From an uncultured virus (IMG/VR IMGVR_UViG_3300035670_008414) (Duplodnaviria; Heunggongvirae; Uroviricota; Caudoviricetes): a stretch of 64,000 nt of DNA. Where the stretch lies: the IMG/VR virus record IMGVR_UViG_3300035670_008414. One strand, written 5' to 3'. The translations under genes and the position numbers were made by a program. Of the stretch, positions 4,729 to 55,547 are shown one piece after another (the first letter of the stretch is position 1; every line of letters starts with the position of its first letter). A model generated the notes under the pieces. It was not told where the DNA came from, ran no database searches, and worked only from the letters and a program-made list of their open reading frames with translations.

Positions 4729-6006
4729 ATGTCTAAAAATAAAAGCAAGGGCGGTATGTTTATGGGAAAGCTTCATAGTGAAGGGGGTATTCCTATAAAG
4801 ATAAAAGAGACTGGACAAGCAATAGAAGTAGAGGGAGATGAGCCATTAATAAGCAATGAAGCAATTAGTGATAATGTAGTTAGAAAAAGACAAGGAACTA
4901 ATGTTGAAATACTAGACCAAATAAATAAAAAGGTAGGTGCTAAAGGAATGAAGGAAAAGGCTACCGAAGTTCATTTAGGGGATGCTATTGTATGTAGAAA
5001 ATCAGCTTACGATAAAAAGAAAAGAACATATATAGGAACGGATAAGCAAATTGTTAGTGCTATAAATAAAAGTGGAGGGTGCAGGGAGATAGAAAAAGGT
5101 GCTAAAGCAATCGAGCCAGATGGTAGTGTTATTCAATATAAAAAGGGGGGTAGCTTAAAAACAAGGTGGGATAAGAAAAAAGCGAGTATTGAGCAGTTAT
5201 CAAAAAACATTCAAAGACTTAGATTAAATTTAACAAAATCATTAAAGTCAAAGGATGAAAAAGAATTTCTCACAGCATTAGTTATTTCTATAATGATGAA
5301 AACTGGAGAAAGGGTAGGTAACTATACTAGTGCTAAAAATGGTCATTTTGGAGTTTCAGGTTTTAGAAAAAAACATATTAAAGTAGAAGGTTCAAATGTA
5401 TATTTAGACTATGTAGGAAAATCTGGAGTAGAACAAGAGAAAAAATTTACCGATAAGGTTTTAAGTTCATATTTAAAGAAAGCAATTAAAGATTCTCCTA
5501 GTCAATATGTTTTTACTACTTCCGATGGTTTTAGAATAAAAGCAGATAGGGTAAATAGATATTTAGAAGATTTTGATGTTACAGCAAAGGATATTCGTGG
5601 GTTTTCGGCTAATAACTGGATTGTAAAAAAGTTAGAGAATTTAGAAATACCTGATTCTGAAAATCAAAGAAAAAGATTATTCAATAAGGTTGGGAAATCA
5701 GTTGCTAAAAAAATAGGTCATGGATTTGCAACACTAAAGAAACATTATTTAATGCCAGAAATCTATGATTACTATTTAAGATATGGTAAAATATTAGATA
5801 CTAAGGAAGCCACTATGTTTGCTAGTGGAGGGGAATTAATAGATGAGAGTTTAAATTTAAGGATTGAGAATAGGTTAAAAGATAATGAAATTACAATTAA
5901 GGATTTAATTGTAATAATTGGAAAAGAACCTGATTACCCTTATGAATATGTAGGTAATTATAAATTACAGAAATGCTTTTTAAGACCTTGTTATAAATTA
6001 GTATGA
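4729..6006 (+). CDS. Polyprotein: HSEGG/EVEG domain - YKKGG - DNA topoisomerase IB catalytic domain - FASGG - C-terminal tag
   Basis: Topo IB pentad: GERVGN (R), YVGKSG (K), KDIRGF (R), IGHG (H), KKHYL (Y). Confidence 0.85.
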   Translation: MSKNKSKGGMFMGKLHSEGGIPIKIKETGQAIEVEGDEPLISNEAISDNVVRKRQGTNVEILDQINKKVGAKGMKEKATEVHLGDAIVCRKSAYDKKKRTYIGTDKQIVSAINKSGGCREIEKGAKAIEPDGSVIQYKKGGSLKTRWDKKKASIEQLSKNIQRLRLNLTKSLKSKDEKEFLTALVISIMMKTGERVGNYTSAKNGHFGVSGFRKKHIKVEGSNVYLDYVGKSGVEQEKKFTDKVLSSYLKKAIKDSPSQYVFTTSDGFRIKADRVNRYLEDFDVTAKDIRGFSANNWIVKKLENLEIPDSENQRKRLFNKVGKSVAKKIGHGFATLKKHYLMPEIYDYYLRYGKILDTKEATMFASGGELIDESLNLRIENRLKDNEITIKDLIVIIGKEPDYPYEYVGNYKLQKCFLRPCYKLV

Positions 6007-7760
6007 CTTTATTAGCACCCAACGGAAAGCCGAGTAATTTAACTCCAGAGCAATATAGAATTGTTCGCACCCATGAATTTATTTCTTGGTTCGGAGATTG
6101 GGAAAAGGCATACGAAACAGGTAATTACGATAATGTTTCAAAGGTTATTGATGAAGAAACAAAAGAACCTTTAGTCGTATATCATGGAACTGATAGAGAT
6201 TTTAATGTATTCGATAAAAATAGAGCAGGAGAATTAGAAACAATAGAAGGGGTTGATAGAAAAATAGGTATTTATTTTAGTAATAAAAGAAGTATTGCAC
6301 GATTTTACACTAAAAATAAAGGTAAAATTTTAGAAGTTTTTTTATGTATAAAAACTCCATTAAAGACAGATAAAGATAAGCTATCAACTTTTCAAATACG
6401 TTTTTTTAAAGAATCAGGAGATGATGGAATAATATGGAATAGGGGTAGTGGAATTTATATTAACAATAAAAAAATACCATTAGAAAAAGGAGAAAAAGCA
6501 GAAATTGAATATATTGTTTTTGAACCCGAACAAATAAAACTTGCCGATGGAACAAACACTACTTTTGATAAAAATAATCCTGATATAAGGTATGATTATG
6601 GAGGTGTTGCTACAAAAATAAAAATGCCAAGTTTTATTGCTCCGAATGGTAATAGAAGTAATCTTTTTCGTATTACAGCAGAAGGAGAAGATGGTAGGTG
6701 GGTTTACCTTTATGATATAGTAAGAACTCCAGAATTTAAAAATTGGTTTGGCGACTGGGAAGAAGCATATAGAACAAAGGATTATGATGGTGTATCAAAA
6801 ATTATAGATGAAAATGGAGAGCCACTTATTTGCTATCATACAACCAATGCAGATTTCTGGGAGTTTAGCGATAGTTATATTGGAAGTAAGACAGATGCAG
6901 GTTTTTATGGAAAAGGTTTCTATTTTACGGAGGGTTCTCCAGATTCTCATTATGGTCAAAGAGAGATACCTTGTTTCTTAAATATCAGAAATCCTTTTAT
7001 ACACATTAGCACATATAGAACTTATCAGCTTAATACAGATGAACTTAAAAGCAAAGGACACGATGGAGTTCTTGTTTTTCCTAATTATTTAGATGCTGAT
7101 AATATTGATTTAAGTAATGGATTAGGTTATAAAGCAAATAGAGTAGATGAAATAGTTGCTTATTATTCAGAAGATATAAAATTAGCCGATGCAACTAATA
7201 CTAAGTTTGATAAATATGACAGTGATATAAGGTATTCAAAAGGAGGTATGATAACAGAAGAAGAAAAAAAGGAAATCTATAAAAAGTGGAAAGACCTTGT
7301 AAATATGTCGGCATCTGAGCTTAAAAAGTTTATGGATAGTGAAGAAGGCAAGGTAGCAGGATTATCAAAAAAAGAAGCTGATAAACTTGGAATAGATTAC
7401 GGAAGGGAAAGTGCTAAGTGGATTCTTAAAATGAAAGATACTCCAGTTAAGGATTGGACACCTAATATGTGGAGATGGGCGAAAAAGCAAATTAGCTTTA
7501 ATTCAAGGATGCGAGGTAATAAAGGAAAATTGTACGATGAAAAAGGCAGAAAGACTAGAAAGCATTTGAGTTTATTGATTTGGGGTCATAATCCTGAGAA
7601 ATATGAGAATGGAGGTATATTGTCTCAAATTTTAGAAGCAAATGAAGTAGAAGGAATTATAGGTAGAAAATTAAACCTATGGAATGACAATATTGTATTT
7701 ATAGAAGGTAAAAAATATAAGAAAATGTATTTGAAACCATTTTACGAAAGAGTTATATGA
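6003..7760 (+). CDS. Polyvalent polyprotein: 2x ADP-ribosyltransferase-like (ART-PolyVal) + DUF3140-like + C-terminal tag
   Basis: Two YHGT/YHTT..G[IF]YF..E.[IV] modules; LVNMSASEL...LSLLIWGHNP; linkers YDYGG, YSKGG, YENGG. Confidence 0.8.
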   Translation: MTLLAPNGKPSNLTPEQYRIVRTHEFISWFGDWEKAYETGNYDNVSKVIDEETKEPLVVYHGTDRDFNVFDKNRAGELETIEGVDRKIGIYFSNKRSIARFYTKNKGKILEVFLCIKTPLKTDKDKLSTFQIRFFKESGDDGIIWNRGSGIYINNKKIPLEKGEKAEIEYIVFEPEQIKLADGTNTTFDKNNPDIRYDYGGVATKIKMPSFIAPNGNRSNLFRITAEGEDGRWVYLYDIVRTPEFKNWFGDWEEAYRTKDYDGVSKIIDENGEPLICYHTTNADFWEFSDSYIGSKTDAGFYGKGFYFTEGSPDSHYGQREIPCFLNIRNPFIHISTYRTYQLNTDELKSKGHDGVLVFPNYLDADNIDLSNGLGYKANRVDEIVAYYSEDIKLADATNTKFDKYDSDIRYSKGGMITEEEKKEIYKKWKDLVNMSASELKKFMDSEEGKVAGLSKKEADKLGIDYGRESAKWILKMKDTPVKDWTPNMWRWAKKQISFNSRMRGNKGKLYDEKGRKTRKHLSLLIWGHNPEKYENGGILSQILEANEVEGIIGRKLNLWNDNIVFIEGKKYKKMYLKPFYERVI

Positions 7761-7933
7761 ATGAGGAAAAAGAAATATTTTTGCCAGATACAAGCATTAA
7801 ATTAAAGAATCTGAAAAGTAAACTAAATAATGTTTATGAATTAGATTTAATAACCAAAAGAGAAAAAATGATATACATAGGAATACTAGGTATATTGGGG
7901 GGAATTATACTCTACAAATTTTTAAAAAAATGA
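7757..7933 (+). CDS. 58-aa tail-anchored membrane protein (not in ORF track)
   Basis: ATGA overlaps at both ends; MIYIGILGILGGIILYKFLKK. Confidence 0.7.
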   Translation: MNEEKEIFLPDTSIKLKNLKSKLNNVYELDLITKREKMIYIGILGILGGIILYKFLKK

Positions 7934-10900
7934 GAATTGCTCAAACACCATCTCCTAAAAAAGAACGGATATTTGGTTCAAAAAAAAACAAGCCTAAATC
8001 ATCTGAAAGCAAATACAAAGCAAGTTCAATAGTTTTAAATCCTAAGACTATTGCTTCTATTAAATCAATTATAGAAAAGCATAATGATAAGTTTTCGGAT
8101 AAAAAAATACCATTAGCTACTGCAAAGGCTGTTGTTCGTAGAGGTATGGGAGCTTATAGTGTATCACATAGACCAACAATAAAAGGAGGTAAACCAAATA
8201 GCAGGGTTGCTTGGGGATTAGCCAGATTAAATGCCTTTGTTTATAAAATACAAAAAGGAACTTCTAAATCTGGAAGATACAATCAGGATGATGATTTGAT
8301 AAATGAATTAGGATATAGAGTAAAAAAATATGCCGAAGGAGGAAAAATGGAAAATAATATAATTGGAGGTAAATCAGATAAAAAAACAATAGAAGATATT
8401 GCTAATATGCACAATGTTTCTATTGATTTTGCTAAAGAGCAATTAGAAAAAGGAATAAAGGTTGAAATGGAACATACAAGCGATACCGAAAAAGCTTACG
8501 AAATTGCATTAGACCATTTATTTGAATTTATTAATTACTACATTGAGCTTGAAAAGATGGAAGAAAAGCTATCTAAACAAGCTAAGTCTGGTATGTCAAA
8601 TGAATATAAGGGTAAGATTTTAGAAAAAATTAATGACACTATATTTTATAGATACTACCCATTAAATTCAAATCCTTTTGATGTTAGCGATAGCCTTGAT
8701 AATAAATATGGAAAAGGAATTTACTTTTTAGATAATCCTTATTACTATCAGGATAAATTCAAAGATGGTATGTTAGTTACCATAAAGCCTAAATTAAAAA
8801 ATCCTAAGTTGTATTTAAGAAAAGAATCAATAACTCCTAATATTGATTATTCATTAGATATTATTGATGCCTTAAAAGATAATATTAAAAACAAAAATGA
8901 ATTTTCGGATAAATTGATTTCAGAGGGTTACGATAGTATAATTGCTATTGAGCCTAGAGGAATGTATTTAGTGTTTTTATTTAATGACCCAGAAAATTAT
9001 GATGTTTTATCGGATAAAAGAAACATGATGGCTTATGGGGGGGAAATTAAACCAGTAGATTTTGTTTCAGATACAATTACAAGTTCTATTGAGGATTTAA
9101 TCGCACAGGGAAATTATTCAGATTTAACATTATTAGAAGCTTTGTACTTTTTCAAGACCTTTCGTAACATTGATTATGGTAAGGGAAAATTTATGTCTAA
9201 TGATGGAGTTAAAGGCATAATGCGTAATAAATTAGTTAATCAAGGATATATTAATGATAGCTGGTTAATTTATTATGAAACTGAATTTGCCGATAATTTT
9301 GATATAGATGATGATAATTATTCTCCTACCGAAAAAGGATATAAATTTTTAAATGCTATTGCAAATAGACACAGAACAAGGAAGGGATTAAAAGAGGGTA
9401 TAGATTTATTTCCTGAATTTGCTAATGTAAAAGAATATGACACTAGAAAAGAATCTAATAAAGCCAAATTAGATAATTTGATTGGTTCACTTTCTAAAAA
9501 ATACAATGATGGTGGAGAGGTTCTATTAGCACCGAATGGAAAACCAAGTAATTTAACTCCAGAGCAATATAGAATTGTTCGCACCCCTGAATTTATTTCT
9601 TGGTTCGGAGATTGGATTAATTCTCCAGAAACAGCAAGTAAAGTAGTTGATGAAAATGGAGAGCCATTAATGGTTATACATAAAACAAATTTGGAAAATG
9701 ATTTTTATGTTTTTGATAAGAATAAAATTGGTGATGCAAATTCATTCACAACTTTAAATGGTTTTTTCTTCGGTAATTACGAAAAAGAAAGTAATAATTT
9801 AAGAAACATATTATGCTTTTTGAGTATTAAAAATCCTATTGTTTTGAATCAATCAAATACTTATTTTGATAGTGTTGGTTATCAAGAAGCAGTACAACAT
9901 TTTATTCAAAATGGAACAACTGATTATTTGGTTGATTATTTAGAACACGAAGAATATGATGATTATGAAATAAATGAAATTTTAGATAACTGGAAATACA
10001 CAGATGGTGTTATAGTCAAAAATCTTTATTATGATAATTTCGATATTGAATATGTTGTATTTCAACCCGAACAAATAAAACTTGCCGATGGAACAAACAC
10101 TACTTTTGATGGAAATAACCCTGATATAAGATATTCAAATGGAGGAAATGTTTATTTTAGAAATTTAGCAAATATCAAAATACTTAACGAAAGGGAATCA
10201 AGAACATTTTATAGAAGGACTTATGCCGATGGAACTATACAAGAATTTAGTGTTTTAGGAGAAAGCAATTCCGATATAAGATATGCAAATGGAGGACAAG
10301 CTTCTTCATGGGAAAAAATGACTTCCGCAAGTTCAAGGTTTAAGCCTTCTGAAACTATTGTATTTGACCCTCCTTTGATTGGATTAAATGGTAATAAACT
10401 AACTTCTTATACATGGTCTTATGAAATGACTATGCAACCTAATTGGGAAGGAGAATTAGTTTCTAAAAGAGTTTCAGATTGGACACAAGCCGAAGCTAGT
10501 GCAGAAACAGGAAGGAATTTAGTTCATCAATATACTATTGAGCTACCTAATGGAGATATAAAAACAGTTAGTTCAGAATCAGTACCTATTCTTTTAGGAT
10601 ATGTAGATAGAACTCAGGCAAAGGCATTTGGTAACTTAGCAACTGCATCTAAAACACTTGCAAAACAACAAATGCAATTAGCTATAATGGAAGCTCAAAA
10701 GAAAGAATATGATGAGATAGTTGCTAAATATGAAAAAGAGCTAAAACCTCAAATAAGGATAGCTACATTAGATGAATTAGGTTGGGGAGCAAAAATAAAA
10801 ATGGAAGAAGCTATGCAAAAAAATGAAGTTCCTAGTCAAACTTTTTTTACTATGGGAGATGTTATTATAGGTCAATATAATAAAGATTATTATGATTCTA

Positions 10901-11088
10901 ACTATGGAACAAAGTATATTCTTATAGATACTCCAAATAAAAACACAATTGAACAATTAACTTCAATGTGGATTTCTAAAAGAGTAGAGGAAGATGGAGG
11001 TAAATATCCTAGAGGTTTATATGACCTAAAAAATAGAGTAGAAAGACAAAAACGCAAAGTAGAAAATTTGCTAAGTAATAAAAATTAA
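7930..11088 (+). CDS. Polyvalent polyprotein: DUF5824-like, DUF5661-like, ART-like modules and unknown modules
   Basis: RRGMGAYSVSHRP..AWGLARLNAF; GIKVEMEHT..IALDHL.E..YY; LLAPNGKPSNL ART module; 5 xxxGG linkers. Confidence 0.75.
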   Translation: MRIAQTPSPKKERIFGSKKNKPKSSESKYKASSIVLNPKTIASIKSIIEKHNDKFSDKKIPLATAKAVVRRGMGAYSVSHRPTIKGGKPNSRVAWGLARLNAFVYKIQKGTSKSGRYNQDDDLINELGYRVKKYAEGGKMENNIIGGKSDKKTIEDIANMHNVSIDFAKEQLEKGIKVEMEHTSDTEKAYEIALDHLFEFINYYIELEKMEEKLSKQAKSGMSNEYKGKILEKINDTIFYRYYPLNSNPFDVSDSLDNKYGKGIYFLDNPYYYQDKFKDGMLVTIKPKLKNPKLYLRKESITPNIDYSLDIIDALKDNIKNKNEFSDKLISEGYDSIIAIEPRGMYLVFLFNDPENYDVLSDKRNMMAYGGEIKPVDFVSDTITSSIEDLIAQGNYSDLTLLEALYFFKTFRNIDYGKGKFMSNDGVKGIMRNKLVNQGYINDSWLIYYETEFADNFDIDDDNYSPTEKGYKFLNAIANRHRTRKGLKEGIDLFPEFANVKEYDTRKESNKAKLDNLIGSLSKKYNDGGEVLLAPNGKPSNLTPEQYRIVRTPEFISWFGDWINSPETASKVVDENGEPLMVIHKTNLENDFYVFDKNKIGDANSFTTLNGFFFGNYEKESNNLRNILCFLSIKNPIVLNQSNTYFDSVGYQEAVQHFIQNGTTDYLVDYLEHEEYDDYEINEILDNWKYTDGVIVKNLYYDNFDIEYVVFQPEQIKLADGTNTTFDGNNPDIRYSNGGNVYFRNLANIKILNERESRTFYRRTYADGTIQEFSVLGESNSDIRYANGGQASSWEKMTSASSRFKPSETIVFDPPLIGLNGNKLTSYTWSYEMTMQPNWEGELVSKRVSDWTQAEASAETGRNLVHQYTIELPNGDIKTVSSESVPILLGYVDRTQAKAFGNLATASKTLAKQQMQLAIMEAQKKEYDEIVAKYEKELKPQIRIATLDELGWGAKIKMEEAMQKNEVPSQTFFTMGDVIIGQYNKDYYDSNYGTKYILIDTPNKNTIEQLTSMWISKRVEEDGGKYPRGLYDLKNRVERQKRKVENLLSNKN

Positions 11089-11089: not shown

Positions 11090-13489
11090 ATGGAATTATT
11101 AGCTCCTAATGGAAAACCTAGCAATCTTACTCCTGAACAATATCATTTAGTAAGAACTCCTGAATTTATCGCTTGGTTCGGAGATTGGCTTAAACTTGCT
11201 ATGGCAAGGGTTAAAGACCCAGCTATGGATGATGTTACACTTAAAGCAATTTCTGAAAATGTTTCAAAAGTAGTTGATGAGAACGGAGAACCTTTGGTGG
11301 TTTATCATGGAACTAATAGACAATTTAATGTATTTGATTTAAAAGAAATAGGTCAAGGCACTGGCAATTTAGGGCATTATGGTTATGGTTTTTATTTTTC
11401 TAATGACATAAGGGAAGCCAAAGGTTATGGAGAAACCATTTTAAAGTGTTACCTTAATATTAGAAAGCCTTTCACTGGTACAGAAAAAGAATTTGATTTA
11501 TTAAAAAACGAAGGTTTTACAGGTATAGATGAAAAAGTTGCTTTAAGCATTGATTTTCAAGACTTATATAAAAAAATTAAGTCTGTGGACTCAAATGCTT
11601 ACAAGTTTATGCAAATAGCCAAAGAAAAAGGAATTGATAATGTTTGGAGCGAATATTTAGAATCTAATTCAAGTTCAAATAATGGCAAAATAGACTTAAA
11701 TGATTTATATGAAGTTTTAACTTATACAGATTTATTTAGTCAAAATAATTCAATTCCAAGTTATGTTTTAGATGAATTTCAATCATTTGGAATTGAACCT
11801 AAAATAAACTATGGGTATGAACACGCTCAATCTTTACATTGGGTTACGGACTTAGGAAACAACTCAAAAATTTTCACTAATTTTATAAAATCATTGAATT
11901 ATGATGGAGTAATTTATGGAAGTGAATATGTTGCATTTGAACCAAACCAAATAAAACTTGCCGATGGAACAAATACTACTTTTGATTCTAACAATCCAGA
12001 TATAAGGTATGAAAATGGAGGAATGACTTATAGGCAATATGTAGATACTCAATTTAATGAAAATGAAGATAGATATTTACCAAGTGATTATTTAGAAGAT
12101 TTTGAAATAAAATATGACACTTTAAATAATTATCCAATATTGTATAAATTTAAAGATAGATTTCAATTTAGATTAGAAAATGAAAATAATAGTTCAATAG
12201 GAGTTTTTGATGGAGATAAACAAATAGCCTATGCTGATAATAAAGTTATTGAAGTTTCCCCATTATACCAAAGGAAAGGCATCGGTTTAGAATTAGTAAC
12301 TATTTTGAAAGAAAGAAATCCAAATCATCGTTTTGGAAGCATGACCCCACAAGGTTTTAATCTTATGGGCAAATACTATGATGAAAAAATAAAGAAAAAA
12401 TTTGACAACGGAGGTAGTATTGATAACCAAAAAAATAAAGAATTAGTTGCTCAAAAAATAAAAATCAGGAATAAATTATCTAGCCTTTTAAAAACATTAG
12501 ACTATAAAACAATTGATATTCATTCTGGTAAATCAAAAGAGGATTTGTTTATCCAAAGGGTTATAGACATGATTTATAATGGATATGACTTTAAAAGCAA
12601 ACTAGATATTGAAAGAATTGCAGTTAAAGAGTTTAATTTTGAGGATGCCAAAAAGGTTAGGGAGCTTACCGAGTATGCAATTCTATTTGTAGGTAGAGAT
12701 ATTTCAAAAGAAAATGATATTAAATCTACCTATGACAAGTTAGTTTCCTTATATGCTAATCAGCCTTATTCTACTCATAGGACTGCTAAATCTATGGAAC
12801 TAGGACAATTCAGCACCCCTGCTCCAATGGCTTATTTAATGGGAGTTTATGTTGGAATAAATAAATCTGATAATAATATATTCTTAGAGCCAACAGCAGG
12901 AAATGGTATGCTAACAATTGCTGGTAATCCAAATGACTTTGTTGTTAATGAATTAGATTTTAACCGATACAATAACTTATTGAAAGATAATTATAAGGAA
13001 GTTTTAAATAAAGATGCTTCAAAACCTATTGATTATGGTTATCAATTTGATGGTTTAATAGCTAACCCTCCTTTTGCAACAACTAAAATAGACTTGTTTA
13101 TAGATAACTATAAAATAAGTGGATTAGAAAATCAAATTATAATTCGTTCTTTAGAATATTTAAAAGATAATGGTAAAGCTGCATTTATAATTGGAGGACA
13201 CACAGAGTTTGATTCAGCAGGAAGGATAAAATCAGCAAAAGACAAAACATTTTTATCTTATTTATATAGCAGATACAATCTTCAAGATGTTATAAATATT
13301 TCAGGAACTTTATACGGAAGGCAAGGCACTACATATCCAATCAGAATATTATTAATTGATGGGAAAAAACCTATTCCACAAGGTTATTATCCATTGAAAA
13401 ATGACAACCTGACTATATTTGACCCTTTTTCTGTAAAGGTTATAAATAATTTTGATGAATTATACAAAAGATTTGAAAATTTTATTTAA
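11090..13489 (+). CDS. Polyprotein: ART-like + GNAT-like + N6-adenine DNA methyltransferase (DarB-like)
   Basis: VYHGT/GFYFS/EYVAF; EVSPLYQRKGIG; GQFSTP, LEPTAGNG, ANPPF; linkers YENGG, FDNGG. Confidence 0.85.
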   Translation: MELLAPNGKPSNLTPEQYHLVRTPEFIAWFGDWLKLAMARVKDPAMDDVTLKAISENVSKVVDENGEPLVVYHGTNRQFNVFDLKEIGQGTGNLGHYGYGFYFSNDIREAKGYGETILKCYLNIRKPFTGTEKEFDLLKNEGFTGIDEKVALSIDFQDLYKKIKSVDSNAYKFMQIAKEKGIDNVWSEYLESNSSSNNGKIDLNDLYEVLTYTDLFSQNNSIPSYVLDEFQSFGIEPKINYGYEHAQSLHWVTDLGNNSKIFTNFIKSLNYDGVIYGSEYVAFEPNQIKLADGTNTTFDSNNPDIRYENGGMTYRQYVDTQFNENEDRYLPSDYLEDFEIKYDTLNNYPILYKFKDRFQFRLENENNSSIGVFDGDKQIAYADNKVIEVSPLYQRKGIGLELVTILKERNPNHRFGSMTPQGFNLMGKYYDEKIKKKFDNGGSIDNQKNKELVAQKIKIRNKLSSLLKTLDYKTIDIHSGKSKEDLFIQRVIDMIYNGYDFKSKLDIERIAVKEFNFEDAKKVRELTEYAILFVGRDISKENDIKSTYDKLVSLYANQPYSTHRTAKSMELGQFSTPAPMAYLMGVYVGINKSDNNIFLEPTAGNGMLTIAGNPNDFVVNELDFNRYNNLLKDNYKEVLNKDASKPIDYGYQFDGLIANPPFATTKIDLFIDNYKISGLENQIIIRSLEYLKDNGKAAFIIGGHTEFDSAGRIKSAKDKTFLSYLYSRYNLQDVINISGTLYGRQGTTYPIRILLIDGKKPIPQGYYPLKNDNLTIFDPFSVKVINNFDELYKRFENFI

Positions 13490-13571: not shown

Positions 13572-16500
13572 ATGGAAAATACAAAATTTGATGATGGTGG
13601 TATGACTACAAATGAATCATCAATGATTAATATAGAGGAATTTGGAGCAGACCCTTCTAATCCTTTGGAAGAAAAAGAAGTTCAAAATGCTGATGCTACT
13701 TCTCAGGCATACGAGCCTATATCAAAGGTTTGTGATACTGTTGATACAGTTGCACCAGTTTCTATGTTATATGAAATGAATAAATCCCTTTCAAGTATTG
13801 ATAGGAAAGTAAGGGGAGTTGATTATTTTGTAATGGAAAGGCTAGGTTATGATAACCTAATGGATTTATGCTCTGCTTTTTCAGCCGAACAAGTGGATGG
13901 AGTGGCTAATGCTATTTATCAGATTGAAAGAGGTCAAGCCTTAATTATTGGAGACCAAACAGGAATCGGAAAAGGGAGACAAGCAGCAGCTATTATCAGA
14001 TACGCAATAAAAGTTGGTAAATTACCAATATTCTTAACTCAAAAGCCAAATTTATTTTCAGACATATATAGAGATTTAATTGCTATTGGTAGCGATGATG
14101 CTATACCTATGGAATATAATGTAGGAGAATATGAGAGGGTAAGAAAAGTTACTAGTGCTTTAATAAAAGATAAAATAAAAGATGATATTGAAAATGGAGA
14201 TTTTGAATTAGAATATAATACAGAAGATTTATTTTCAAAGGAAAACAAAAAAGTATTAAATGAAGTAATCGAAGAATATAGAGAGCTTTATTTTCCCTCA
14301 TCAGTTGAAAAATATACTTCTTATAAAAAAAATAAAGAGTACCAATCTGATATAAGGGGTAAAAAAAGAATTGTTCCTTTTATAGTAAATGCTAAAAACG
14401 ATAAAACGAAGATTAAAGATGATAAGGGTAATATATTATATACTACTGAAAAAGATATTCAGACCTCTGCTTTTGATAGTATGATGTTGCCAAAGGGATA
14501 TGATGTAGTTTTACTAACATATTCTCAGATAAACAAAATGTCAAATAAGGTAACGTGGTTATCTAGTATAGCAAATGAATCTATTGTAATTATGGATGAA
14601 AGTCATACTGCTAGTGGAGAAAGTGCTACTGGTAGAATGATAGAAGGTATCATAGAAAAATCTTATGGCGTTTGTTTCTTATCTGCGACATTTGCTAAAA
14701 AGCCATCTAATATGCCTATTTATGCTATGAAAACAGCAATTAGGGATGCTGATATGGAAAAGGACAAATTAGTTCAGGCAATAAGTCAAGGTGGAGTAGC
14801 ATTACAGGAAATACTTTCTTCTCAATTAGTTTTGGAAGGTCAAATGTTAAGGAGAGAGAGGTCTTACGAAGGAGTAGTAGTAAATTACAACTACTTAGAT
14901 GATAGAATGTTAGACCGAGATGTTCCTTTACCACAATTTGATTTAAAAGAAGCTCATCAGTCAATATCAGATAAAGTTACCGATATTTTAAGAAGGATTA
15001 TAACATTTCAAAAAGAGAAAGTTAATCCTATTATCGAAAGAATGGATATTGAATATGCAGAAAGCCAAATAAGAGTAGGAGTTGAAAGACAAAATGTAGA
15101 AGGTGGTATCAGTAATTATCCCTTGTTTAGCGGAATTTTTAATCTTGTAAATCAATTGCTTTTGTCTATAAAAGCAGAAGCAGTAGCAGAATTTGCAGTA
15201 ATGAGATTAAAAGAAGGTAAAAAGGTAGTAATTGGTTTGGCTAGTACCCTTGAAAGCTTCTTAGATTATATGGTTGCTGATGAAGGAGGTAAAATAAAAA
15301 CTGATTTTGGTGTTATTTTAAGAAGAAGACTAGAAAAGACACTAGAGTACACTATGAAATTAGAAGATGGTAGTACCGAAAAGGAAGCTTTAAATTATAG
15401 TGAATACCCAGAATTACAAATAGAATATAATGAGATATTGGATGATATTGAAAATGCTTCTACTGGTATTACAATAAGTCCAATTGATGTAATAGTTAAT
15501 TACATTAAGAACGCAGGTTATGAAATTGGAGAGGTTACTGGAAGAAATAAGTATGTAGAGTTTTTAGGTAATAATTATGGAGTTATTAAGGATAGGAGAA
15601 AAGAACCTGCAAATGATTTATTTAGAAAGTTTAATAATAATGAATTAGATTGTTTAATCATTAATCAATCAGGTGCAGTTGGTGCTTCGGCTCATGCAAT
15701 AAAAACAGATAAAGTTAATGTTGTAAACTATGATTCAGAAGGAAATCCAATTATACCTACATCACTATATCCTAAAAATGAAGTTAAACAGCGAGTAATG
15801 ATTATTTTACAAGCTGAATTAGACATTAATAATGAAGTACAAAAAAGAGGTCGTATAAATAGAACTGGTCAAATATTTAAACCAATTTATGACTATGTAA
15901 TTTCATCTATACCAGCAGAGGAAAGGTTAATGATGATGTTACAAAAGAAATTAAAATCTTTGGATGCTAATACTACTTCTAATCAAAAACAATCTTCAAA
16001 AGTATTGAATGTAGTAGATTTTTTAAATGTTTATGGAGATGAAAAAGTTGCTGAATTTTTAACTAATAATCCTACATTCAATGAAATGACAGGTTCTTTA
16101 GTTAAAATTGAAGATGGAAAACTTGATACATCTTCAAACTTAGTTGATTTAGCTCATAGGGTAAGTGGTAGAGTAGCTGTTTTAAGTGTTGAAAATCAAA
16201 ATACATTTTACAAAACAGTTTCTACTGCATATATTGATAAAGAAAAACAATTAAGGTCTTTAGGAGAATGGAATTTAGAGGTTGAGAGTATAGATTTAGA
16301 AGCTAAAACTTTAAATAGAGAAGTGGTTGCTGTTGGTAATCCAGATTCAAAATCAGTATTCGGAAGTCCTGTATTTATTGAAAAATGCGAAGTAAACAAT
16401 CTTCGTAAGCCTTATAAGAAAAGCGATGTAATTACAATGATAGATGAATCATTAGTTGTTACTATGGCTGATGGAAAAAGGATGAAAATGAATCCAGATG

Positions 16501-17807
16501 AAAAAGTTAAATTCTTAAAGGATGCTTTGGCGAAAAGCATAATATCTAATATTGATGATGATAATACTTATTACGATAATAAAAAAGAGTTTAAAATAAA
16601 AGATTTAATGAATAGTCCTTCTGTATCTAAGAAAAAAGGAACAGAAAGAAAGGATTATATTGATGAAAAAACTGCTATAATTGAGGTGGAGATAAATACC
16701 TTAAAAGAAAAAAGCTCTGATTATTATAAAAGTGTATCAAATAAAATAGGGAGATTATTAGATTTTTTCAAACCTTCTAAAATAATATCATATCCTACAA
16801 GACTAGGAGAATCATTTGCTGGTATTTGTTTAGGTGTCAATGTTGATTTAAGTTTAAAAAACCCATTTGTTCCTAGTGCAATGTTTGTTAGATTTTTATT
16901 CCCTAATGGTTTAAAATATCTTAAAATAGCACTTTCGGATAGCCTATTAGACAGTATTATAGGAAATACAATGACTTCTGAATATTCTTATAGTGATGAA
17001 ACTGATTTTAAACTATTTGTGGAAAGCTGGGATAATTTAACTAAGGAAAGTAGTTTTAATAGAGTAGAAAGATACATTGTTACTGGTAACATATTAAAGG
17101 CTTATAATAATCCTGAATTTATGTATGGTGGTAAATTAGTTTCATACACTACTATAAATAAGGAAGTTAAAAAGGGAATCTTGTTAAATGATAATTACAA
17201 AAAAACAGGACAAGATTATGTAAGTGTACCTTTAAAATCAGCAGTAAGATTTATTAAAAAAGGTTCAGGTTCAATTAAATTGTCTAATAATATTAGTATT
17301 ATAATAGTTAATGGAGGTTTTAAATTAATAATACCTGCAAAAAGTAAATTGTTAAAAGATAAAGATTTAATAGAATTAACAGTAAATAATGACATTAAAA
17401 AAGAATCAGGATATTACACAGGCAATTTTTATGATGAATCTCTTGAAAATGTAATAGACATTTTATGGAATAAGTATAAATTATATGTTCTAATTCCTGC
17501 TTCTAATTTTGAAGTTATAAAAGACCAATTTGATATTGAATATAGAGACTTTGCAACTAAAGATGGAGTAGAGGAATTACTTCAAAAAATGAATAAAGAT
17601 TACGATGATTACGAAAGAGAGCAAAGCTTTGTAAAAATAGATGAATCTGAATTAAATAAAATGGATGAACTTGAAAAAGAAGTCTATGATTTAAGAAAGA
17701 GAAATGCTGAGTTAGATTTACAAAGGAGACTATATAAAGTATATGCTTCATTAGGTCGTGAAATCGAGAAAAGAAAAAGAGAAAAAGAAAAATCACAATC
17801 TAATTAA
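13572..17807 (+). CDS. Strawberry-notch-family SF2 helicase (DarB-like helicase moiety)
   Basis: GDQTGIGKGRQ, MDESH, SAT, QKRGRINRTGQ, LKSLDANT; N-terminal KFDDGG. Confidence 0.9.
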   Translation: MENTKFDDGGMTTNESSMINIEEFGADPSNPLEEKEVQNADATSQAYEPISKVCDTVDTVAPVSMLYEMNKSLSSIDRKVRGVDYFVMERLGYDNLMDLCSAFSAEQVDGVANAIYQIERGQALIIGDQTGIGKGRQAAAIIRYAIKVGKLPIFLTQKPNLFSDIYRDLIAIGSDDAIPMEYNVGEYERVRKVTSALIKDKIKDDIENGDFELEYNTEDLFSKENKKVLNEVIEEYRELYFPSSVEKYTSYKKNKEYQSDIRGKKRIVPFIVNAKNDKTKIKDDKGNILYTTEKDIQTSAFDSMMLPKGYDVVLLTYSQINKMSNKVTWLSSIANESIVIMDESHTASGESATGRMIEGIIEKSYGVCFLSATFAKKPSNMPIYAMKTAIRDADMEKDKLVQAISQGGVALQEILSSQLVLEGQMLRRERSYEGVVVNYNYLDDRMLDRDVPLPQFDLKEAHQSISDKVTDILRRIITFQKEKVNPIIERMDIEYAESQIRVGVERQNVEGGISNYPLFSGIFNLVNQLLLSIKAEAVAEFAVMRLKEGKKVVIGLASTLESFLDYMVADEGGKIKTDFGVILRRRLEKTLEYTMKLEDGSTEKEALNYSEYPELQIEYNEILDDIENASTGITISPIDVIVNYIKNAGYEIGEVTGRNKYVEFLGNNYGVIKDRRKEPANDLFRKFNNNELDCLIINQSGAVGASAHAIKTDKVNVVNYDSEGNPIIPTSLYPKNEVKQRVMIILQAELDINNEVQKRGRINRTGQIFKPIYDYVISSIPAEERLMMMLQKKLKSLDANTTSNQKQSSKVLNVVDFLNVYGDEKVAEFLTNNPTFNEMTGSLVKIEDGKLDTSSNLVDLAHRVSGRVAVLSVENQNTFYKTVSTAYIDKEKQLRSLGEWNLEVESIDLEAKTLNREVVAVGNPDSKSVFGSPVFIEKCEVNNLRKPYKKSDVITMIDESLVVTMADGKRMKMNPDEKVKFLKDALAKSIISNIDDDNTYYDNKKEFKIKDLMNSPSVSKKKGTERKDYIDEKTAIIEVEINTLKEKSSDYYKSVSNKIGRLLDFFKPSKIISYPTRLGESFAGICLGVNVDLSLKNPFVPSAMFVRFLFPNGLKYLKIALSDSLLDSIIGNTMTSEYSYSDETDFKLFVESWDNLTKESSFNRVERYIVTGNILKAYNNPEFMYGGKLVSYTTINKEVKKGILLNDNYKKTGQDYVSVPLKSAVRFIKKGSGSIKLSNNISIIIVNGGFKLIIPAKSKLLKDKDLIELTVNNDIKKESGYYTGNFYDESLENVIDILWNKYKLYVLIPASNFEVIKDQFDIEYRDFATKDGVEELLQKMNKDYDDYEREQSFVKIDESELNKMDELEKEVYDLRKRNAELDLQRRLYKVYASLGREIEKRKREKEKSQSN

Positions 17808-41159: not shown

Positions 41160-41168
41160 AAAAATAAA

Positions 41169-42956: not shown

Positions 42957-42962
42957 TTTAAA

Positions 42963-43499: not shown

Positions 43500-43500
43500 A

Positions 43501-44010: not shown

Positions 44011-44040
44011 ATATAAACCAAAGAATAAAATCACAAACAA

Positions 44041-44502: not shown

Positions 44503-44518
44503 ATAAAAACAAAACAAG

Positions 44519-45067: not shown

Positions 45068-45078
45068 AAAATAAAATT

Positions 45079-45756: not shown

Positions 45757-45885
45757 ATGAATAAGAATTTATTAATTATCGGAGGTATTTTAATAGCCGC
45801 TTCTATTGGTTATTACATATACAAATCAAGGAATAGAGAACTGTCTCAAATAGATGTAATGAATGATGATTTATTAGACTTATAA
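45757..45885 (+). CDS. 42-aa TM protein (not in ORF track)
   Basis: MNKNLLIIGGILIAASIGYYIY...VMNDDLLDL; abuts both neighbours. Confidence 0.65.
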   Translation: MNKNLLIIGGILIAASIGYYIYKSRNRELSQIDVMNDDLLDL

Positions 45886-46616: not shown

Positions 46617-46625
46617 ATAAAAAAA

Positions 46626-48926
46626 ATGGACACACCAAAAATTTACATTGCAGATTTAGCTGCTTATAATGAAGGCAAATTAATAGGAGAATGGGTTGAT
46701 TTATCTGATTTCAATGATGGTTCAGAGGTAATGGATGAAATTCAGTCTTTACTAGAAAAATGGTCTAGTGAACAAGGAGAAGAAAGAGAAGAATATGCTA
46801 TTCATGATTTTGAAAATTTCAGCCGAGACTTATATAGTGAATATATGGGAGAAGAAGAATTTGATAAGATAATCAAAATTTATAGTATAAGTGAAGATAA
46901 AAACATTCCACAGGAAGTAATTGGAACTTTAGTTAGAGAATATGGATTAGAGCCTGATGAAATTGAAGATTGGATTGATGAGCATTATCAAGGTCAATTT
47001 GATTCCGATGAAGATTTAGCCTATAATTATATTGAAATGGTGGGTGGAGTTGAAGGATTAGGAGAAGATACAATGAAAAGATATTTCGACTATGAATCAT
47101 TTGGTAGGGATTTGGCTTATGACTATGCAGAATACGATGGACACTATTTTAGAACATATAAAGATGGTGGTTCGGTATCTTATGATTTGAACAAATATAT
47201 TAAAGAAGGTAAAGGATATAAAAGAGGAGGTAAGGTTAAAAATTACTGGATTCAAGATGCTTTAGGAGGTAAAAAAGGAGTTTTAAAAAGAAAAGCTCTT
47301 AAAGAAGGATTAGTAAGGAGCATGGATGAGAAATTATCTAAAACAGACCTTAGAAAATTACAAAAGATGGGAGGTAAAACTGCTAAGAGAGCTTATTTGG
47401 CAGAAACATTGAGGTCTTTTGCCAAAGGCGGTGGGGTTGGAGATTTTAACATAGGTCAAAGTGTAACTATTGATAGATACAATGATAATGAAAATTACGA
47501 TGATTATAGAGGTAAAGAGCTAGTAATAACTGATAAAATAACAAGTTCAAAACAGCATCCTGATTTTGATGAAGGAATAGAAGGACAAGCATTATATTCT
47601 TTTGTTTTAAGAGAAACAGGAGAAGATGTTCCATTTAGTTTGTATGATTATGAACTAGAACAATACGCAAAAGGCGGTGGGGTTGGGGAATACGATTCTG
47701 ATGGATATAGTTATGAGATTTTCTATTCACTTGATAACCCAGAAATTTTCGTGAAAAAAGAAAAAGGTAGATTGGGTAGATACGCTGTATTCGTTGGAGG
47801 AACTATGAGGAGCGGACATCCTGATTTGAAATCAGCTATTAGACAAGCAGACTGGATGCACAATTTTATGTTAAAAAATAAATATGCCAAAGGCGGTGGG
47901 GTTGGAGATTTTAACATAGGTCAAAGTGTAACTATTGATAGATACAATGATAATGAAAATTACGATGATTATAGAGGTAAAGAGCTAGTAATAACTGATA
48001 AAATAACAAGTTCAAAACAGCATCCTGATTTTGATGAAGGAATAGAAGGACAAGCATTATATTCTTTTGTTTTAAGAGAAACAGGAGAAGATGTTCCATT
48101 TAGTTTGTATGATTATGAACTAGAACAATACGCAAAAGGCGGTGGGGTTGGGGAATACGATTCTGATGGATATAGTTATGAGATTTTCTATTCACTTGAT
48201 AACCCAGAAATTTTCGTGAAAAAAGAAAAAGGTAGATTGGGTAGATACGCTGTATTCGTTGGAGGAACTATGAGGAGCGGACATCCTGATTTGAAATCAG
48301 CTATTAGACAAGCAGACTGGATGCACAATTTTATGTTAAAAAATAAATATGCCAAAGGCGGTGGGGTTGGTCGTAGAACAAAAAACTACAAGTATATTCC
48401 AAATCGAATGATTCAGTCAGCAGAAGTAAAGAAAGGTAGAAAAGTAACTGAAATTGCTGGTAAAAATATTCTTGATGGAATTTATGTTAGAGGTAAAGTT
48501 AAATTTGACAATGGAGGTTCTATTGATGATAAATTTTCAATGTCAAAACTTACTCGTGAAAATGGAAAATTTGTAGAAATGGTTATTGCAGAAAATGTAA
48601 CTGTTGGAGAGTTTGAAAAAATGTTTAATGACAAGGGTTATAGGAAAGTTTCAGATACAAGCTTAGTTGGATTTTATTTTGTTAAACCTAATGGAGATAC
48701 AATACAATTAGTTCCAAGTTTCCATAAAAGAGGAGAAATTTTACAATATGAAAATGGAGGTTCTATTGGTTCGGAAGAAGAAGAAGTAAGAAACAACCTT
48801 GTAAATGGAGAAATTTCATGTGAAGCATTACAAAATATTTTGGGTTGCAAACCTGAATATCCAGTTCAAGTTGTTGGTTCATTAAAATTAACTAAGAGCT
48901 TTTTAAGACCTTATTACACAATTTAA
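46626..48926 (+). CDS. ardA: Polyprotein: ArdA antirestriction domain + GG-delimited modules + C-terminal tag
   Basis: KIYIADLAAYNEGKLIGEWVDL, EEYAIHDFE, YFDYESFGRDL; nine [YF]xxGG linkers. Confidence 0.85.
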   Translation: MDTPKIYIADLAAYNEGKLIGEWVDLSDFNDGSEVMDEIQSLLEKWSSEQGEEREEYAIHDFENFSRDLYSEYMGEEEFDKIIKIYSISEDKNIPQEVIGTLVREYGLEPDEIEDWIDEHYQGQFDSDEDLAYNYIEMVGGVEGLGEDTMKRYFDYESFGRDLAYDYAEYDGHYFRTYKDGGSVSYDLNKYIKEGKGYKRGGKVKNYWIQDALGGKKGVLKRKALKEGLVRSMDEKLSKTDLRKLQKMGGKTAKRAYLAETLRSFAKGGGVGDFNIGQSVTIDRYNDNENYDDYRGKELVITDKITSSKQHPDFDEGIEGQALYSFVLRETGEDVPFSLYDYELEQYAKGGGVGEYDSDGYSYEIFYSLDNPEIFVKKEKGRLGRYAVFVGGTMRSGHPDLKSAIRQADWMHNFMLKNKYAKGGGVGDFNIGQSVTIDRYNDNENYDDYRGKELVITDKITSSKQHPDFDEGIEGQALYSFVLRETGEDVPFSLYDYELEQYAKGGGVGEYDSDGYSYEIFYSLDNPEIFVKKEKGRLGRYAVFVGGTMRSGHPDLKSAIRQADWMHNFMLKNKYAKGGGVGRRTKNYKYIPNRMIQSAEVKKGRKVTEIAGKNILDGIYVRGKVKFDNGGSIDDKFSMSKLTRENGKFVEMVIAENVTVGEFEKMFNDKGYRKVSDTSLVGFYFVKPNGDTIQLVPSFHKRGEILQYENGGSIGSEEEEVRNNLVNGEISCEALQNILGCKPEYPVQVVGSLKLTKSFLRPYYTI
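47420..48370 (+). repeat. 465-bp tandem duplication (2 units), apparently identical, bounded by GG-linker DNA
   Basis: gccaaaggcggtggggttgg at 47421, 47886, 48351; intervening sequence looks identical by eye. Confidence 0.95.
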
Positions 48927-48945
48927 TAATATTAAAAAATAAACA

Positions 48946-50297: not shown

Positions 50298-51110
50298 ATG
50301 AATTTTTCGATACCATGTAACGGATTGCCATTTACTTTGATTGTCGGTATAAAAACTAACAAGCCTGAAAATATTTGCCTTACTGCTAAAGATTATCATA
50401 AGCAAAATACATACTACATTAGTAGAAAAGGAATGGTAAATGGTTATAAGGAATATGAATTAAAGTTCCCACAAACTCCAAAGCTATTAGTATTTTCTAT
50501 TTTCAACTTAGATAAGGGTAATTTTCCAAATAATGAGGATGATTCATTCAAAATAGTAAAATTTGAAGCTGAGAATTGTAAAACATATCCACTTTGGGGA
50601 GATAAAGATGTTTTTAATTTTGTAAAGTTTGCAAAAGAATTTTCAGCAAATGCAAGTGTTTTATCATCTGGAGACTTTAAGCCTAGTATTTATCGTTCCG
50701 ATGATGGTAAATTTTGTATTGACTATTATAATAAAATTAGAGATAGAAAAAGTGGTAGATTTGTTAGTACCCCTGCTAGAATAGGACATCAAACAGGTAT
50801 TATAGAAATTTCTAAGTCTGATTTTGAAAAATATACTGTGCCTATGAGAATGGTAATTTTATTGCATGAATTTTCTCATAAGTACATGAATCCAAAAGTA
50901 AATAGAGAAATATCAGATGAAATTGCAGCCGATATTAATGCTCTAAATATTTATCTTTCATTAGGTTATCCAGACATTGAAGCTCAATATGCGTTTTTAA
51001 GAGTATTTAAGGGAGCTAATAACTCTTTAAATAAAAAGAGATATTTGATTTTGGATGATTTCATAAAGAAATTTTCCAAAGGAGACTTGGAAAATAAGCT
51101 AGATGTATAA
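50298..51110 (+). CDS. Zincin-like metallopeptidase
   Basis: VILLHEFSH followed by EIAAD third-ligand motif. Confidence 0.7.
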   Translation: MNFSIPCNGLPFTLIVGIKTNKPENICLTAKDYHKQNTYYISRKGMVNGYKEYELKFPQTPKLLVFSIFNLDKGNFPNNEDDSFKIVKFEAENCKTYPLWGDKDVFNFVKFAKEFSANASVLSSGDFKPSIYRSDDGKFCIDYYNKIRDRKSGRFVSTPARIGHQTGIIEISKSDFEKYTVPMRMVILLHEFSHKYMNPKVNREISDEIAADINALNIYLSLGYPDIEAQYAFLRVFKGANNSLNKKRYLILDDFIKKFSKGDLENKLDV

Positions 51111-53105: not shown

Positions 53106-53341
53106 TGATAGATGAAAATGAAATAGTTGAAACTAATGTAAAGGAGTTGCAAAAAAGTCAAACAGTTAGACTGATTGATGTATTTGTAATTGCTCCTATT
53201 TGTGTTTATGCTGGTTTCAAATATTCAAAGACTATGCCTTATTGGTTAAGTTTGAGCCTGATTGGTATAGGACTTGCGACTTTTGTTTATAATGGAAAAA
53301 ATTATTTAGAGAATAAAAATAATTTAAAATTAGTTGAGTAA
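53105..53341 (+). CDS. Two-TM small protein
   Basis: RLIDVFVIAPICVYAG; WLSLSLIGIGLATFVYNG. Confidence 0.7.
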   Translation: MIDENEIVETNVKELQKSQTVRLIDVFVIAPICVYAGFKYSKTMPYWLSLSLIGIGLATFVYNGKNYLENKNNLKLVE

Positions 53342-55119
53342 TGGGATTAATTGATTGGTTTGATTTTGATAAAAAAATGGCTTTGATTAATCTCGGTCAA
53401 ATTGAAGAATATGCTATAAAGTTAGATAAGATAGTTTCAGATGAATCTGAATTAGAAGATTGGGTTAAAATGAAACTAACTAAGGTTGAGCAAAATATAG
53501 CAGATGTAAAAAAATCTCTTAAAGGTTGGGAAAAATTCGAGGGATATGAAGAAGGAGGTAGAATATTCAAAAAACAATTACTTCATATTGGTAGCTATGC
53601 AAAAGATTTAATTGAAATGATTAAGTCAGGCTCTAAGCTAATGTCATGGCAAGAAAATAAACTTGCTGTAAGTGCAGAATATATTGATGGTATATATCAT
53701 CATTTAGAATATGAAATGGGTAAAAGAGCAAGTGATATTAAAGAATATGCTAATGGTGGCATGGTTAATTATTACGACAAAGATGCAGAGTATAAGATAG
53801 GCAGACCTTCGGGAAGTATTGAAAAAGACATACTTAGTAAAGTCGATTATGAATATTTAAAGCCTTATTTTATTGGAAATTTTGGTTGGAAAACTCCAAA
53901 TGGAAAATTAGCAGATGGGTATTTATTCAGTTTAGATAATTTTGACCAAGATTTAGTAAGAAAAATAAATTTAAAAGAAGGAGAAAAAATTTATAGATAC
54001 TTTAATAGCACTACTGCAATAGGTGGCTCTACTCCATTTATAAAAATAAATTTGTTAAAAGGACTTCTATATTTTTCTATACCAAATGAAAATGATGATA
54101 TTATCTTTGAAACAAAGGGTATTAAATCAGAATGGATAAATTTAATTTCGGATAAATATGCTAATGGAGGTGCTATTGATACTTTTCCAAAATCAATAAA
54201 AGATAAAATTGATGAAATAAATTCACTTATTGAATGGTCAAAAGATAAGGAAAATTTAGTAGGAGGTTATTTTGGAGGTACTTACTATGAGTATTTAGAT
54301 TTTGAAAAACCGATTACAATTAAAAATAATTTTGTTTATATAGAATACAATCAAGGTGGTGGAAAGGAATCAAAAGAAAGATACAATGTAAACAAAAAAA
54401 GTCAATTTGATAGTTATGGTTTATATGAGCTAAAAAAAGAACTTATGAGAATACATGGTGCTTTCAAAAGAGCAAAGAAAAAATATGATGAAAAAGGCTA
54501 TTTTGATAATGGAGGTAATATTCAAGAAGATTTTGATTGGAATAAACTTTTTGAACCTCTATCTGAAATGGAACAAAATATTCTAAATGAAAGAATAAGA
54601 AAAGAAGAATCAGAACTTACTACAAAGGAGAAAGATAGTTGGGCGAAACAAATAAGAGCTAGTGGCAATAATTGGAATGAAGCCTTTATTCGTAGAGTAA
54701 ATTCAGCAAAACATAACATTGATAAATTTATTGAGTGGTCAAATAAAAAATATGGAGAAGAAAAAGCTCAATCTTATTTTTCTTATGCTTTAGAAGATAT
54801 TGATAGCATTAGAGAATTAAGATATGGTGCTTTAAGATATGCAAATAATTTAGAAAAAAGGCTTCGTGAAGCATACGACCAATACTTTGTAAAAGGAGTA
54901 AAGAAATTCGATATTGGAGGAGACATAGAGGATTTATCAATAGCTTCTAAAACATTCTCTAAAACTTCCGAAATGTTAGTTAGGGAAAATTTAAAAGATG
55001 GAGAAATTTGTGTTTGTAAATTAAAAAAGATTCTAGGTCATGAACCTGAATATCCATTTCAAATTGTAGGAAGTTTGAAATTAGAAAAAGTATTTTTAAA
55101 ACCTTATTATAAAATTTAA
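53341..55119 (+). CDS. Polyprotein of GG-delimited modules + C-terminal tag
   Basis: Two helical repeats (L.I..YA..L....L..W...KL); YEEGG, YANGG x2, FDNGG, FDIGG; ILGHEPEYP...FLKPYYKI. Confidence 0.75.
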   Translation: MGLIDWFDFDKKMALINLGQIEEYAIKLDKIVSDESELEDWVKMKLTKVEQNIADVKKSLKGWEKFEGYEEGGRIFKKQLLHIGSYAKDLIEMIKSGSKLMSWQENKLAVSAEYIDGIYHHLEYEMGKRASDIKEYANGGMVNYYDKDAEYKIGRPSGSIEKDILSKVDYEYLKPYFIGNFGWKTPNGKLADGYLFSLDNFDQDLVRKINLKEGEKIYRYFNSTTAIGGSTPFIKINLLKGLLYFSIPNENDDIIFETKGIKSEWINLISDKYANGGAIDTFPKSIKDKIDEINSLIEWSKDKENLVGGYFGGTYYEYLDFEKPITIKNNFVYIEYNQGGGKESKERYNVNKKSQFDSYGLYELKKELMRIHGAFKRAKKKYDEKGYFDNGGNIQEDFDWNKLFEPLSEMEQNILNERIRKEESELTTKEKDSWAKQIRASGNNWNEAFIRRVNSAKHNIDKFIEWSNKKYGEEKAQSYFSYALEDIDSIRELRYGALRYANNLEKRLREAYDQYFVKGVKKFDIGGDIEDLSIASKTFSKTSEMLVRENLKDGEICVCKLKKILGHEPEYPFQIVGSLKLEKVFLKPYYKI

Positions 55120-55133
55120 CTCAAAAAACAATC

Positions 55134-55547
55134 ATGGCAAAAAAATCAAAAACTCCTAGTAGAGATAAAAAAGTTAAGGCAAAGCCTTCTGGTTATCGTT
55201 TTAAAACTAAGGACATCGAGGGATTAACTAAAAAAGATGGTACTCTAAACAAAAAGGGTAAAAAATTATATTTTAAAAGACCTACAAAAGCAGAGGTAGA
55301 AAAATATAAGAAGCAAGATGGGGAATACCCTAGTGAAACAAAACAAGTTTACAAAGAAGTAAGAGAGGAAAGAGGGGATGCTAACTTGAAAAAAAAGTTT
55401 AACGAAGGAGGTAATGTAGTAGTTGAAATGAGCATAGAAGAAATGAGAAATGCTTTAGGTAGAGAGCCTAAATATCCTTATGATTTTATTGCAGGTAAAA
55501 AATACACAAAGTGTTTTTTAAGACCATACTATAAAACCGAAGAATAA
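55134..55547 (+). CDS. Basic module - FNEGG - C-terminal tag
   Basis: K/R-rich N-module; ALGREPKYPYDFIAGKKYTKCFLRPYY. Confidence 0.75.
   Translation: MAKKSKTPSRDKKVKAKPSGYRFKTKDIEGLTKKDGTLNKKGKKLYFKRPTKAEVEKYKKQDGEYPSETKQVYKEVREERGDANLKKKFNEGGNVVVEMSIEEMRNALGREPKYPYDFIAGKKYTKCFLRPYYKTEE

Follow-up and report, generated by a model that had tools for sequence, protein, structure and literature searches.

Adenovirus protease and pS273R of African swine fever virus (ASFV) cut virion polyproteins after GG, and the prohead proteases of T4 (gp21), phiKZ and SPN3US cut one short motif that recurs in numerous head and ejection proteins, with targeting peptides being lost as the particle matures. Polyvalent proteins, which occur in phages and conjugative elements, have been predicted to be delivered with the virion and to have their domains released by peptidases (PMC5512222). 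The stretch analysed here, 64,000 nucleotides of an uncultured virus (IMG/VR record IMGVR_UViG_3300035670_008414; hereafter the window), encodes ten putative cargo proteins between positions 4,729 and 55,547 which carry copies of the motif [YF]xxGG. Open reading frames (ORFs) are named by their first position, and all features given below lie on the + strand.

Altogether 36 strict [YF]xxGG sites were detected in the ten cargo ORFs, compared to 4.1±2.0 (maximum 12) in 1000 shuffles. The original prediction of more than 30 copies, enriched over shuffled sequences, was thus borne out, including all the examples it quoted. ORFs 4729, 6003, 7930, 11090, 13572, 17817, 20844, 46626, 53341 and 55134 contain 2, 3, 4, 3, 2, 1, 5, 9, 6 and 1 strict sites, respectively, to which MAYGG in ORF 7930 is additional. 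The earlier counts per ORF were right for 46626 but too low for 20844 (given as four) and 53341 (given as five). Three strict sites look incidental: FIIGG inside the methyltransferase of 11090, FMYGG inside the helicase of 13572 and YNQGG in 53341. The other 62 ORFs of the window remain at chance level (10 vs 6.2±2.5, with 103 of 1000 shuffles reaching 10). Adding a hydrophobic residue ([YF]xxGGx[VIL]) sharpened the signal to 28 vs 0.8 in the ten ORFs and 1 vs 1.3 in the others. The shuffle test of the ten ORFs involves selection since they were picked for carrying the motif; in the whole-contig test, which is free of such selection, 21 of 23 related contigs had more motifs than any of their shuffles, the exceptions being G004 and G009.

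Based on 340 GGx[VIL] sites from 48 cargo proteins, collected without assuming the aromatic residue, position -3 is occupied by Y (32%), F (30%), M (17%) or L (6%), together 85%, and position -4 by K in 28%, while A, E or K are found at -2 and K, N or D at -1. The full motif therefore reads K-[YFM]-[AEK]-[KND]-G-G-x-[VIL]. Its synonymous codon positions vary freely, which places the signal at the protein level and rules out a DNA-level element. In 120 database proteins sharing the N-terminal domain of ORF 4729 the motif was found 803 times versus 15. No paper on the motif or on this virus group was found in the literature searched, subscription journals lying outside its coverage.

Homology between the cargo proteins ends at the motifs, as originally claimed for domain boundaries. 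When 46 cargo proteins were compared all against all (the 48 less two that are glycine-rich and fibre-like), 261 of 452 internal alignment ends lay no more than 12 residues from a motif, compared to 99 for random positions. A masking artefact was ruled out by equally masked decoy sites: in eight runs 211-241 of 352-386 alignment ends fell at motifs and only 22-38 at decoys. In ORF 4729 the motifs at residues 137 and 364 enclose a topoisomerase IB module (5152..5832; Pfam PF01028, E 3e-22; residues 143-339), and the ArdA module of 46626 (PHROG match 3-178) ends at a motif at residue 178, both as previously described. The form DIRYxxGG was likewise recognised as closing ART modules, although it closes all four of them (6003 at 197 and 411, 7930 at 735, 11090 at 307) rather than three. 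Modules that follow a motif often open other ORFs at or near the initiator methionine, several at an offset of 0-3 and others of up to 17 residues. The largest enzymes, 13572 and 17817, are undivided, and their only canonical motif lies 5 residues from the N-terminus in the former and 21 from the C-terminus in the latter.

We consider the chances about even that the cargo strings are recruited and then cleaved within the motif, the bond probably being the one that follows the aromatic residue. According to this model the ten ORFs would encode cargo carried inside a large virus that lacks a tail and contains a membrane; packaging of the cargo is inferred from the position of its genes around the morphogenesis genes. 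Each ORF would line up modules that have been shuffled and are joined by the motif, namely anti-defence enzymes, short basic pieces binding DNA and others without an assigned function. The precursors may be drawn into the assembling particle, in this clade via a common C-terminal tag, and a maturation cut at the motif, for which the bond following the aromatic or Met residue is the most likely, would yield products starting with AxGGxV like the C-terminal fragment pb2C of the T5 tape measure protein. The freed modules could then condense DNA or be ejected into the host.

The tag comprises 45-55 C-terminal residues and is common to six proteins of the window (4729, 6003, 23786, 46626, 53341 and 55134). 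In the five cargo proteins among them it directly follows the last motif, as in ORF 4729 (copy 1, 5833..6003; hidden Markov model (HMM) E 3e-22). The sixth, an acidic protein without a GG motif (23786..24304), is the probable source of the tag, which may be read as an assembly domain of 23786 grafted onto cargo. The tag is limited to a clade, being present in 8 of the 23 contigs; G035:C131 and G036:C48 have it on the 23786 ortholog only. No family was found for it in Pfam, PHROGs or the Atlas, where the best score of 0.87 is a lead only. Other clades (G005, G028, G029, G017, G027, G012) have different shared cargo tails, e.g. Y-x-[IV]-G-G-L or W-x-D-A-V-K-R-A.

The position of the putative cut is suggested by tape measure proteins. 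Residues 1-141 of ORF 4729 (4729..5151) make up a domain in which G, H and E residues are conserved, here termed the HxxGG domain, which is a candidate reader of the motif and was detected in all 18 contigs spanning the ATPase gene, in one of them weakly. It is homologous to the C-terminal domain of tape measure proteins of Bacteroidota siphophages (E 2e-5; HMM E 1e-11, 3e-9 and 1e-7), in which FARGGEI, FAKGGTV and YAQGGGF follow or bracket the domain, the motif representing a strand that flanks it. No significant relative among solved structures and only weak PHROG matches were found for the HxxGG domain.

The tape measure protein pb2 of T5 is cut after R1127 according to the section on it in PMC10038345, and pb2C is given as 92 residues long in the relevant part of PMC12617516. 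Residue 1128 of pb2 starts the sequence AEGGMM, 92 residues from the end, which has the top motif score among the 1219 residues of pb2 with or without the aromatic column. As the cut falls before AEGGMM, the bond in the cargo proteins probably lies after the aromatic residue and not after GG. This would also suit an ART module of phage F116 homologous to those of the window, which ends with DILF and then diverges without GG, so that the aromatic residue is part of the upstream module. The F116 polyvalent proteins gave 1 match each to a possible general R[YF]S boundary code, which was rejected as being at chance level. From lambda gpH about 14 kDa are removed C-terminally, the site and the catalyst being stated as unknown in the passage concerned of PMC12617516. 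Lambda gpH contains FATGG at 733 and YATGG at 778, both in its C-terminal region, and a hypothetical cut F733/A734 would free 120 residues of 12.5 kDa. No conserved motif was found by the authors of PMC10713586 in the C-terminal tape measure fragments aligned in the part of that work considered here.

The leading candidate for the maturation protease is a core gluzincin (M48-like) peptidase with an N-terminal beta-sandwich (50298..51110), encoded in the morphogenesis module between the cargo genes 46626 and 53341. It has 415 homologs, and 791 clusters at 50% identity were obtained (E up to 0.001). Its HExxH...E...D site is conserved, with H190, E191 and H194 in 150 of 150 aligned columns, E208 in 147 of 147 and D212 in 147 of 148. 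The structural model (predicted local distance difference test 93) shows an M48-like catalytic domain behind the beta-sandwich, and its fold matches reach middling Z scores (BepA, Z 8.1, root mean square deviation (rmsd) 4.2, 121 aligned; 3c37, Z 6.7; ZMPSTE24, Z 6.7; abylysin, Z 6.0). Since no match was detected in Pfam, PHROG or NCBIfam, the peptidase does not belong to a named family. Provided that the motif is cut, the chances that this peptidase is the enzyme appear slightly less than even; a host or other enzyme is possible though not likely, and the HxxGG domain, acting in cis or in trans, is a rather unlikely catalyst. The zincin embedded in 17817 seems unlikely to act as a general protease as HExxH segments occur in the cargo of only about 5 of 23 contigs (regular expression search). 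Additional partial paralogs of the C-terminal part of the peptidase were found outside the structural module (G002:C1:74645-75190; G003:C1:18329 and 33394; G034:C16:22570 and 278184).

Several points weigh against cutting as outlined here. The peptidase is present in 23 of 23 contigs, yet this count is ascertained because it served as the anchor to collect most of them; G001 and G002, collected via the capsid protein, also carry it. T5 and lambda are not known to encode a peptidase of this type, and the register would be different with thermolysin-like enzymes, whose usual point of cleavage is in front of a hydrophobic residue. The first rank of the T5 site is modest evidence given that pb2 has only 5 GG runs and that Arg replaces the aromatic residue. 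With the aromatic column the site scores 4.0, the runner-up 3.9, and the 5th percentile of true sites is 8.1. Homology of the ORF 4729 domain with T5 pb2C or lambda gpH was undetected, at probabilities of 0.1% and 0.6%, respectively (profile vs single sequence). Finally, several proteins end 2-6 residues past GG with the hydrophobic residue kept.

The latter observation would rather be expected if the motif were an uncleaved docking or sorting tag, i.e. a beta-strand that completes the HxxGG domain in trans, or binds a shell or membrane protein, and thereby enriches the particle in cargo or supplies the cargo to an ejection channel. We regard this as possible but less than likely. It would agree with the position of the motif as the domain's natural first strand, seen in tape measure proteins and in some homologs (KYKNGGLAYGNSH), with the excess of C-terminal motifs (9 vs 3.0 in shuffles, maximum 7), with the two largest enzymes, 13572 and 17817, each having a single motif near one end, and with conservation on both sides of GG. 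However, the strict placement between every module and right before the C-terminal tag exceeds what tagging needs, and the T5 precedent is a cut. The terminal copies may be relics of gene fission, and matches of the regular expression near N-termini are mostly membrane-anchor helices rather than the motif.

The original prediction, a cut after GG in the style of adenovirus protease or ASFV pS273R, now seems unlikely, whether the enzyme would be a cysteine protease of clan CE or the ORF 50298 peptidase. GG is invariant, and modules that also occur as separate proteins start immediately after the GG position (offset 0, EVLLAPNG vs MELLAPNG). On the other hand, the mapped cut of T5 pb2 sits before AEGG and puts the bond four residues further upstream, and the spacing is unlike the (M/I/L)xGG consensus. 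The search for an adenain/Ulp1-clan protease proposed along with that prediction yielded no match to Peptidase_C48 (PF02902) or Peptidase_C5 (PF00770) in the window or in 33 related virus records (0 of 6 among those at least 90% complete), although a very divergent member could escape Pfam. Likewise, no clan CE protease was detected in Pfam scans of G029 (88 ORFs) or G036:C48 (106 of 148 ORFs), and no conserved cysteine-protease-like family was recognised by eye among the core clusters seen. Vaccinia I7 (C57) and the transglutaminase families were covered only through the general Pfam scans, without a separate search. What persists of the original claim, by inference, is modular cargo polyproteins with a protein-level motif at their boundaries and a conserved peptidase in the morphogenesis module, whereas the adenovirus/ASFV-type reading is unsupported and the analogy weak.

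A neutral flexible linker spread by recombination of its own coding DNA, as might be proposed from an exact 465-nucleotide duplication in 46626 that ends in motif-coding DNA, seems very improbable, since synonymous codons vary and six positions keep their residue-specific conservation even between contigs with peptidases of only 35-40% identity.

The preferred model of packaging followed by cutting gains a hint from a second motif, [YF]-S-x-A-x-G (motif B), which was counted 39 vs 0.9 times across 23 contigs in membrane proteins with a C-terminal anchor and, in a looser form, in 70 of 120 capsid leaders vs 11 in shuffles. Its presence on capsid leader and membrane proteins is what would be expected of a general maturation protease. 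In the region 37793-50289 of the window the form [YF]-S-[NS]-A-[DNE]-G was observed in the capsid leader and in membrane proteins (37793, 39570, 41169, 48946). Several membrane-anchored proteins in 42963-48946 share by eye an N-terminal tag resembling L-L/I-N-x-x-x-L-D, and N...L[DN] was counted 53 vs 24.5 times.

The candidate major capsid protein (37793..38596), which has 353 homologs and is present in 22 of 23 contigs, was assigned on the basis of this conservation. Its model suggests one jelly roll (residues 72-229) behind a low-confidence N-terminal leader with motif B; the best fold match is PR772 chain 6q5u_O with a middling Z of 6.3 (rmsd 3.0, 95 aligned), followed by the phiCjT23 capsid (Z 5.2), and the viral fold library gave no meaningful match. 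An FtsK/HerA-type ATPase (26209..27060; Pfam DUF87, E 7e-6, over the cut-off; 18 of 23 contigs) is the candidate packaging motor. For neither the capsid protein nor the ATPase was an annotated relative found in phages. The virus looks tail-less: no terminase, portal or HK97 capsid was detected in the window, in G029 (88 ORFs) or in the 106 of 148 ORFs scanned in G036:C48, and the window encodes many small membrane-anchored proteins. The automatic Atlas labels of related peptidase clusters are Uroviricota, which counts against a tail-less virus. The double jelly-roll groups in the part of PMC5894146 describing them include none matching these viruses. G029 is 69 kb long with inverted terminal repeats, G036:C48 is 109 kb long with a direct repeat at its ends, and G034:C16, a contig of 375 kb syntenic with the window, carries 33 tRNA genes and a tmRNA and is a candidate jumbo tail-less virus with about a dozen capsid jelly-roll paralogs. 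The host is probably a member of the Bacteroidota, judging from 8 of 15 genome bins with the peptidase (four are archaeal, and bins can be wrong) and from the ORF 4729 domain, for which 60 of 60 phage matches point to this phylum.

Further probable jelly-roll paralogs of the capsid protein are encoded at 27057-27950 and 51103-52857, the latter with a long insertion and spike- or vertex-like. The genes between the ATPase and the capsid protein (27950-37110) are predicted to encode glycosyltransferases, three sulfotransferases, an APS kinase, a nucleotidyltransferase and a methyltransferase, possibly a sulfated-glycan pathway for the particle surface. A LEA_2-domain membrane protein (58658-59185) is a core gene of 22 of 23 contigs.

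Among the remaining cargo, ORF 6003 (6003..7760) encodes two ART-PolyVal modules, a DUF3140 module and the C-terminal tag (7617-7757) with 3 motifs, and 7930 (7930..11088) a basic module, a DUF5661 module, ART-PolyVal and modules of no assigned function with 5 motifs including MAYGG. ORF 11090 (11090..13489; 2 canonical motifs) combines ART-PolyVal, a GNAT-like module read by eye without a profile match, and an adenine methyltransferase resembling the N-half of DarB, while 13572 (13572..17807; canonical motif at residue 6) is an SF2/Strawberry-notch helicase resembling its C-half. The LPD1 protein 17817 (17817..20807; motif at residue 971) contains an HExxH zincin segment (about 19446-19772) with a CLCA_X match (E 1e-17) below the cut-off of that profile. 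Short modules make up 20844 (20844..22781; 5 motifs) and 53341 (53341..55119; 5 canonical motifs, tag at 54922-55116), and accompany ArdA in 46626 (46626..48926; 9 motifs, tag at 48762-48923). ORF 55134 (55134..55547) consists of a basic module (net +16), one motif and the tag (55413-55544). Two modules of 46626 form the exact tandem duplication (47433..48362; 465 of 465 nucleotides identical), which runs from motif to motif and suggests that recombination in motif-coding DNA helps to shuffle modules.

If the model holds true, the range of polyprotein maturation would grow to include a large family of tail-less bacterial viruses that appears to be undescribed and has contigs reaching 375 kb. 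With the motif as a guide, cargo proteins that are otherwise opaque could be divided into hundreds of candidate modules for anti-defence and DNA condensation. The model would moreover offer a prediction for the cut site and the catalyst of lambda gpH, a gap of fifty years. More doubtful, and put forward tentatively, is the idea that the AxGG motif and the HxxGG domain represent one ancient, previously unrecognised processing module that cuts tape measure proteins (T5 R1127/AEGG; lambda F733/ATGG predicted), the domain having been captured and its target strand spread over the cargo of single jelly-roll viruses of 69-375 kb as a programmable load-and-release code for dozens of effectors.

Compared to adenovirus and ASFV, the system shares a jelly-roll virus, a glycine-pair motif and basic core pieces and enzymes as precursors, but differs in that no clan CE protease was found in the records searched, in the spacing, probably in the scissile bond and in a single instead of a double jelly roll. 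The T4 gp21 and phiKZ/SPN3US systems employ a motif ending in Glu and a serine protease in tailed phages with the HK97 fold, unlike the system proposed here. Tape measure processing resembles it in the AEGGMM at the T5 cut, in FATGG and YATGG of lambda and in the domain plus motif of the Bacteroidota proteins; however, it involves one cut in one tail protein as opposed to dozens of sites in internal cargo. The polyvalent proteins draw on the same stock of domains in the passages of PMC5512222 (ART-PolyVal, LPD1, the methyltransferase-SF2 helicase dyad, ArdA, the HExxH zincin), and such fused conflict domains (ART-PolyVal, LPD, methyltransferase-helicase, ArdA, zincin) are present in the cargo of the window. 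Those passages describe an embedded predicted peptidase (MPTase) and no cut motif, whereas the cargo system described here is distinguished by a fixed motif, common tags, a stand-alone core peptidase and a virus that appears to be tail-less.

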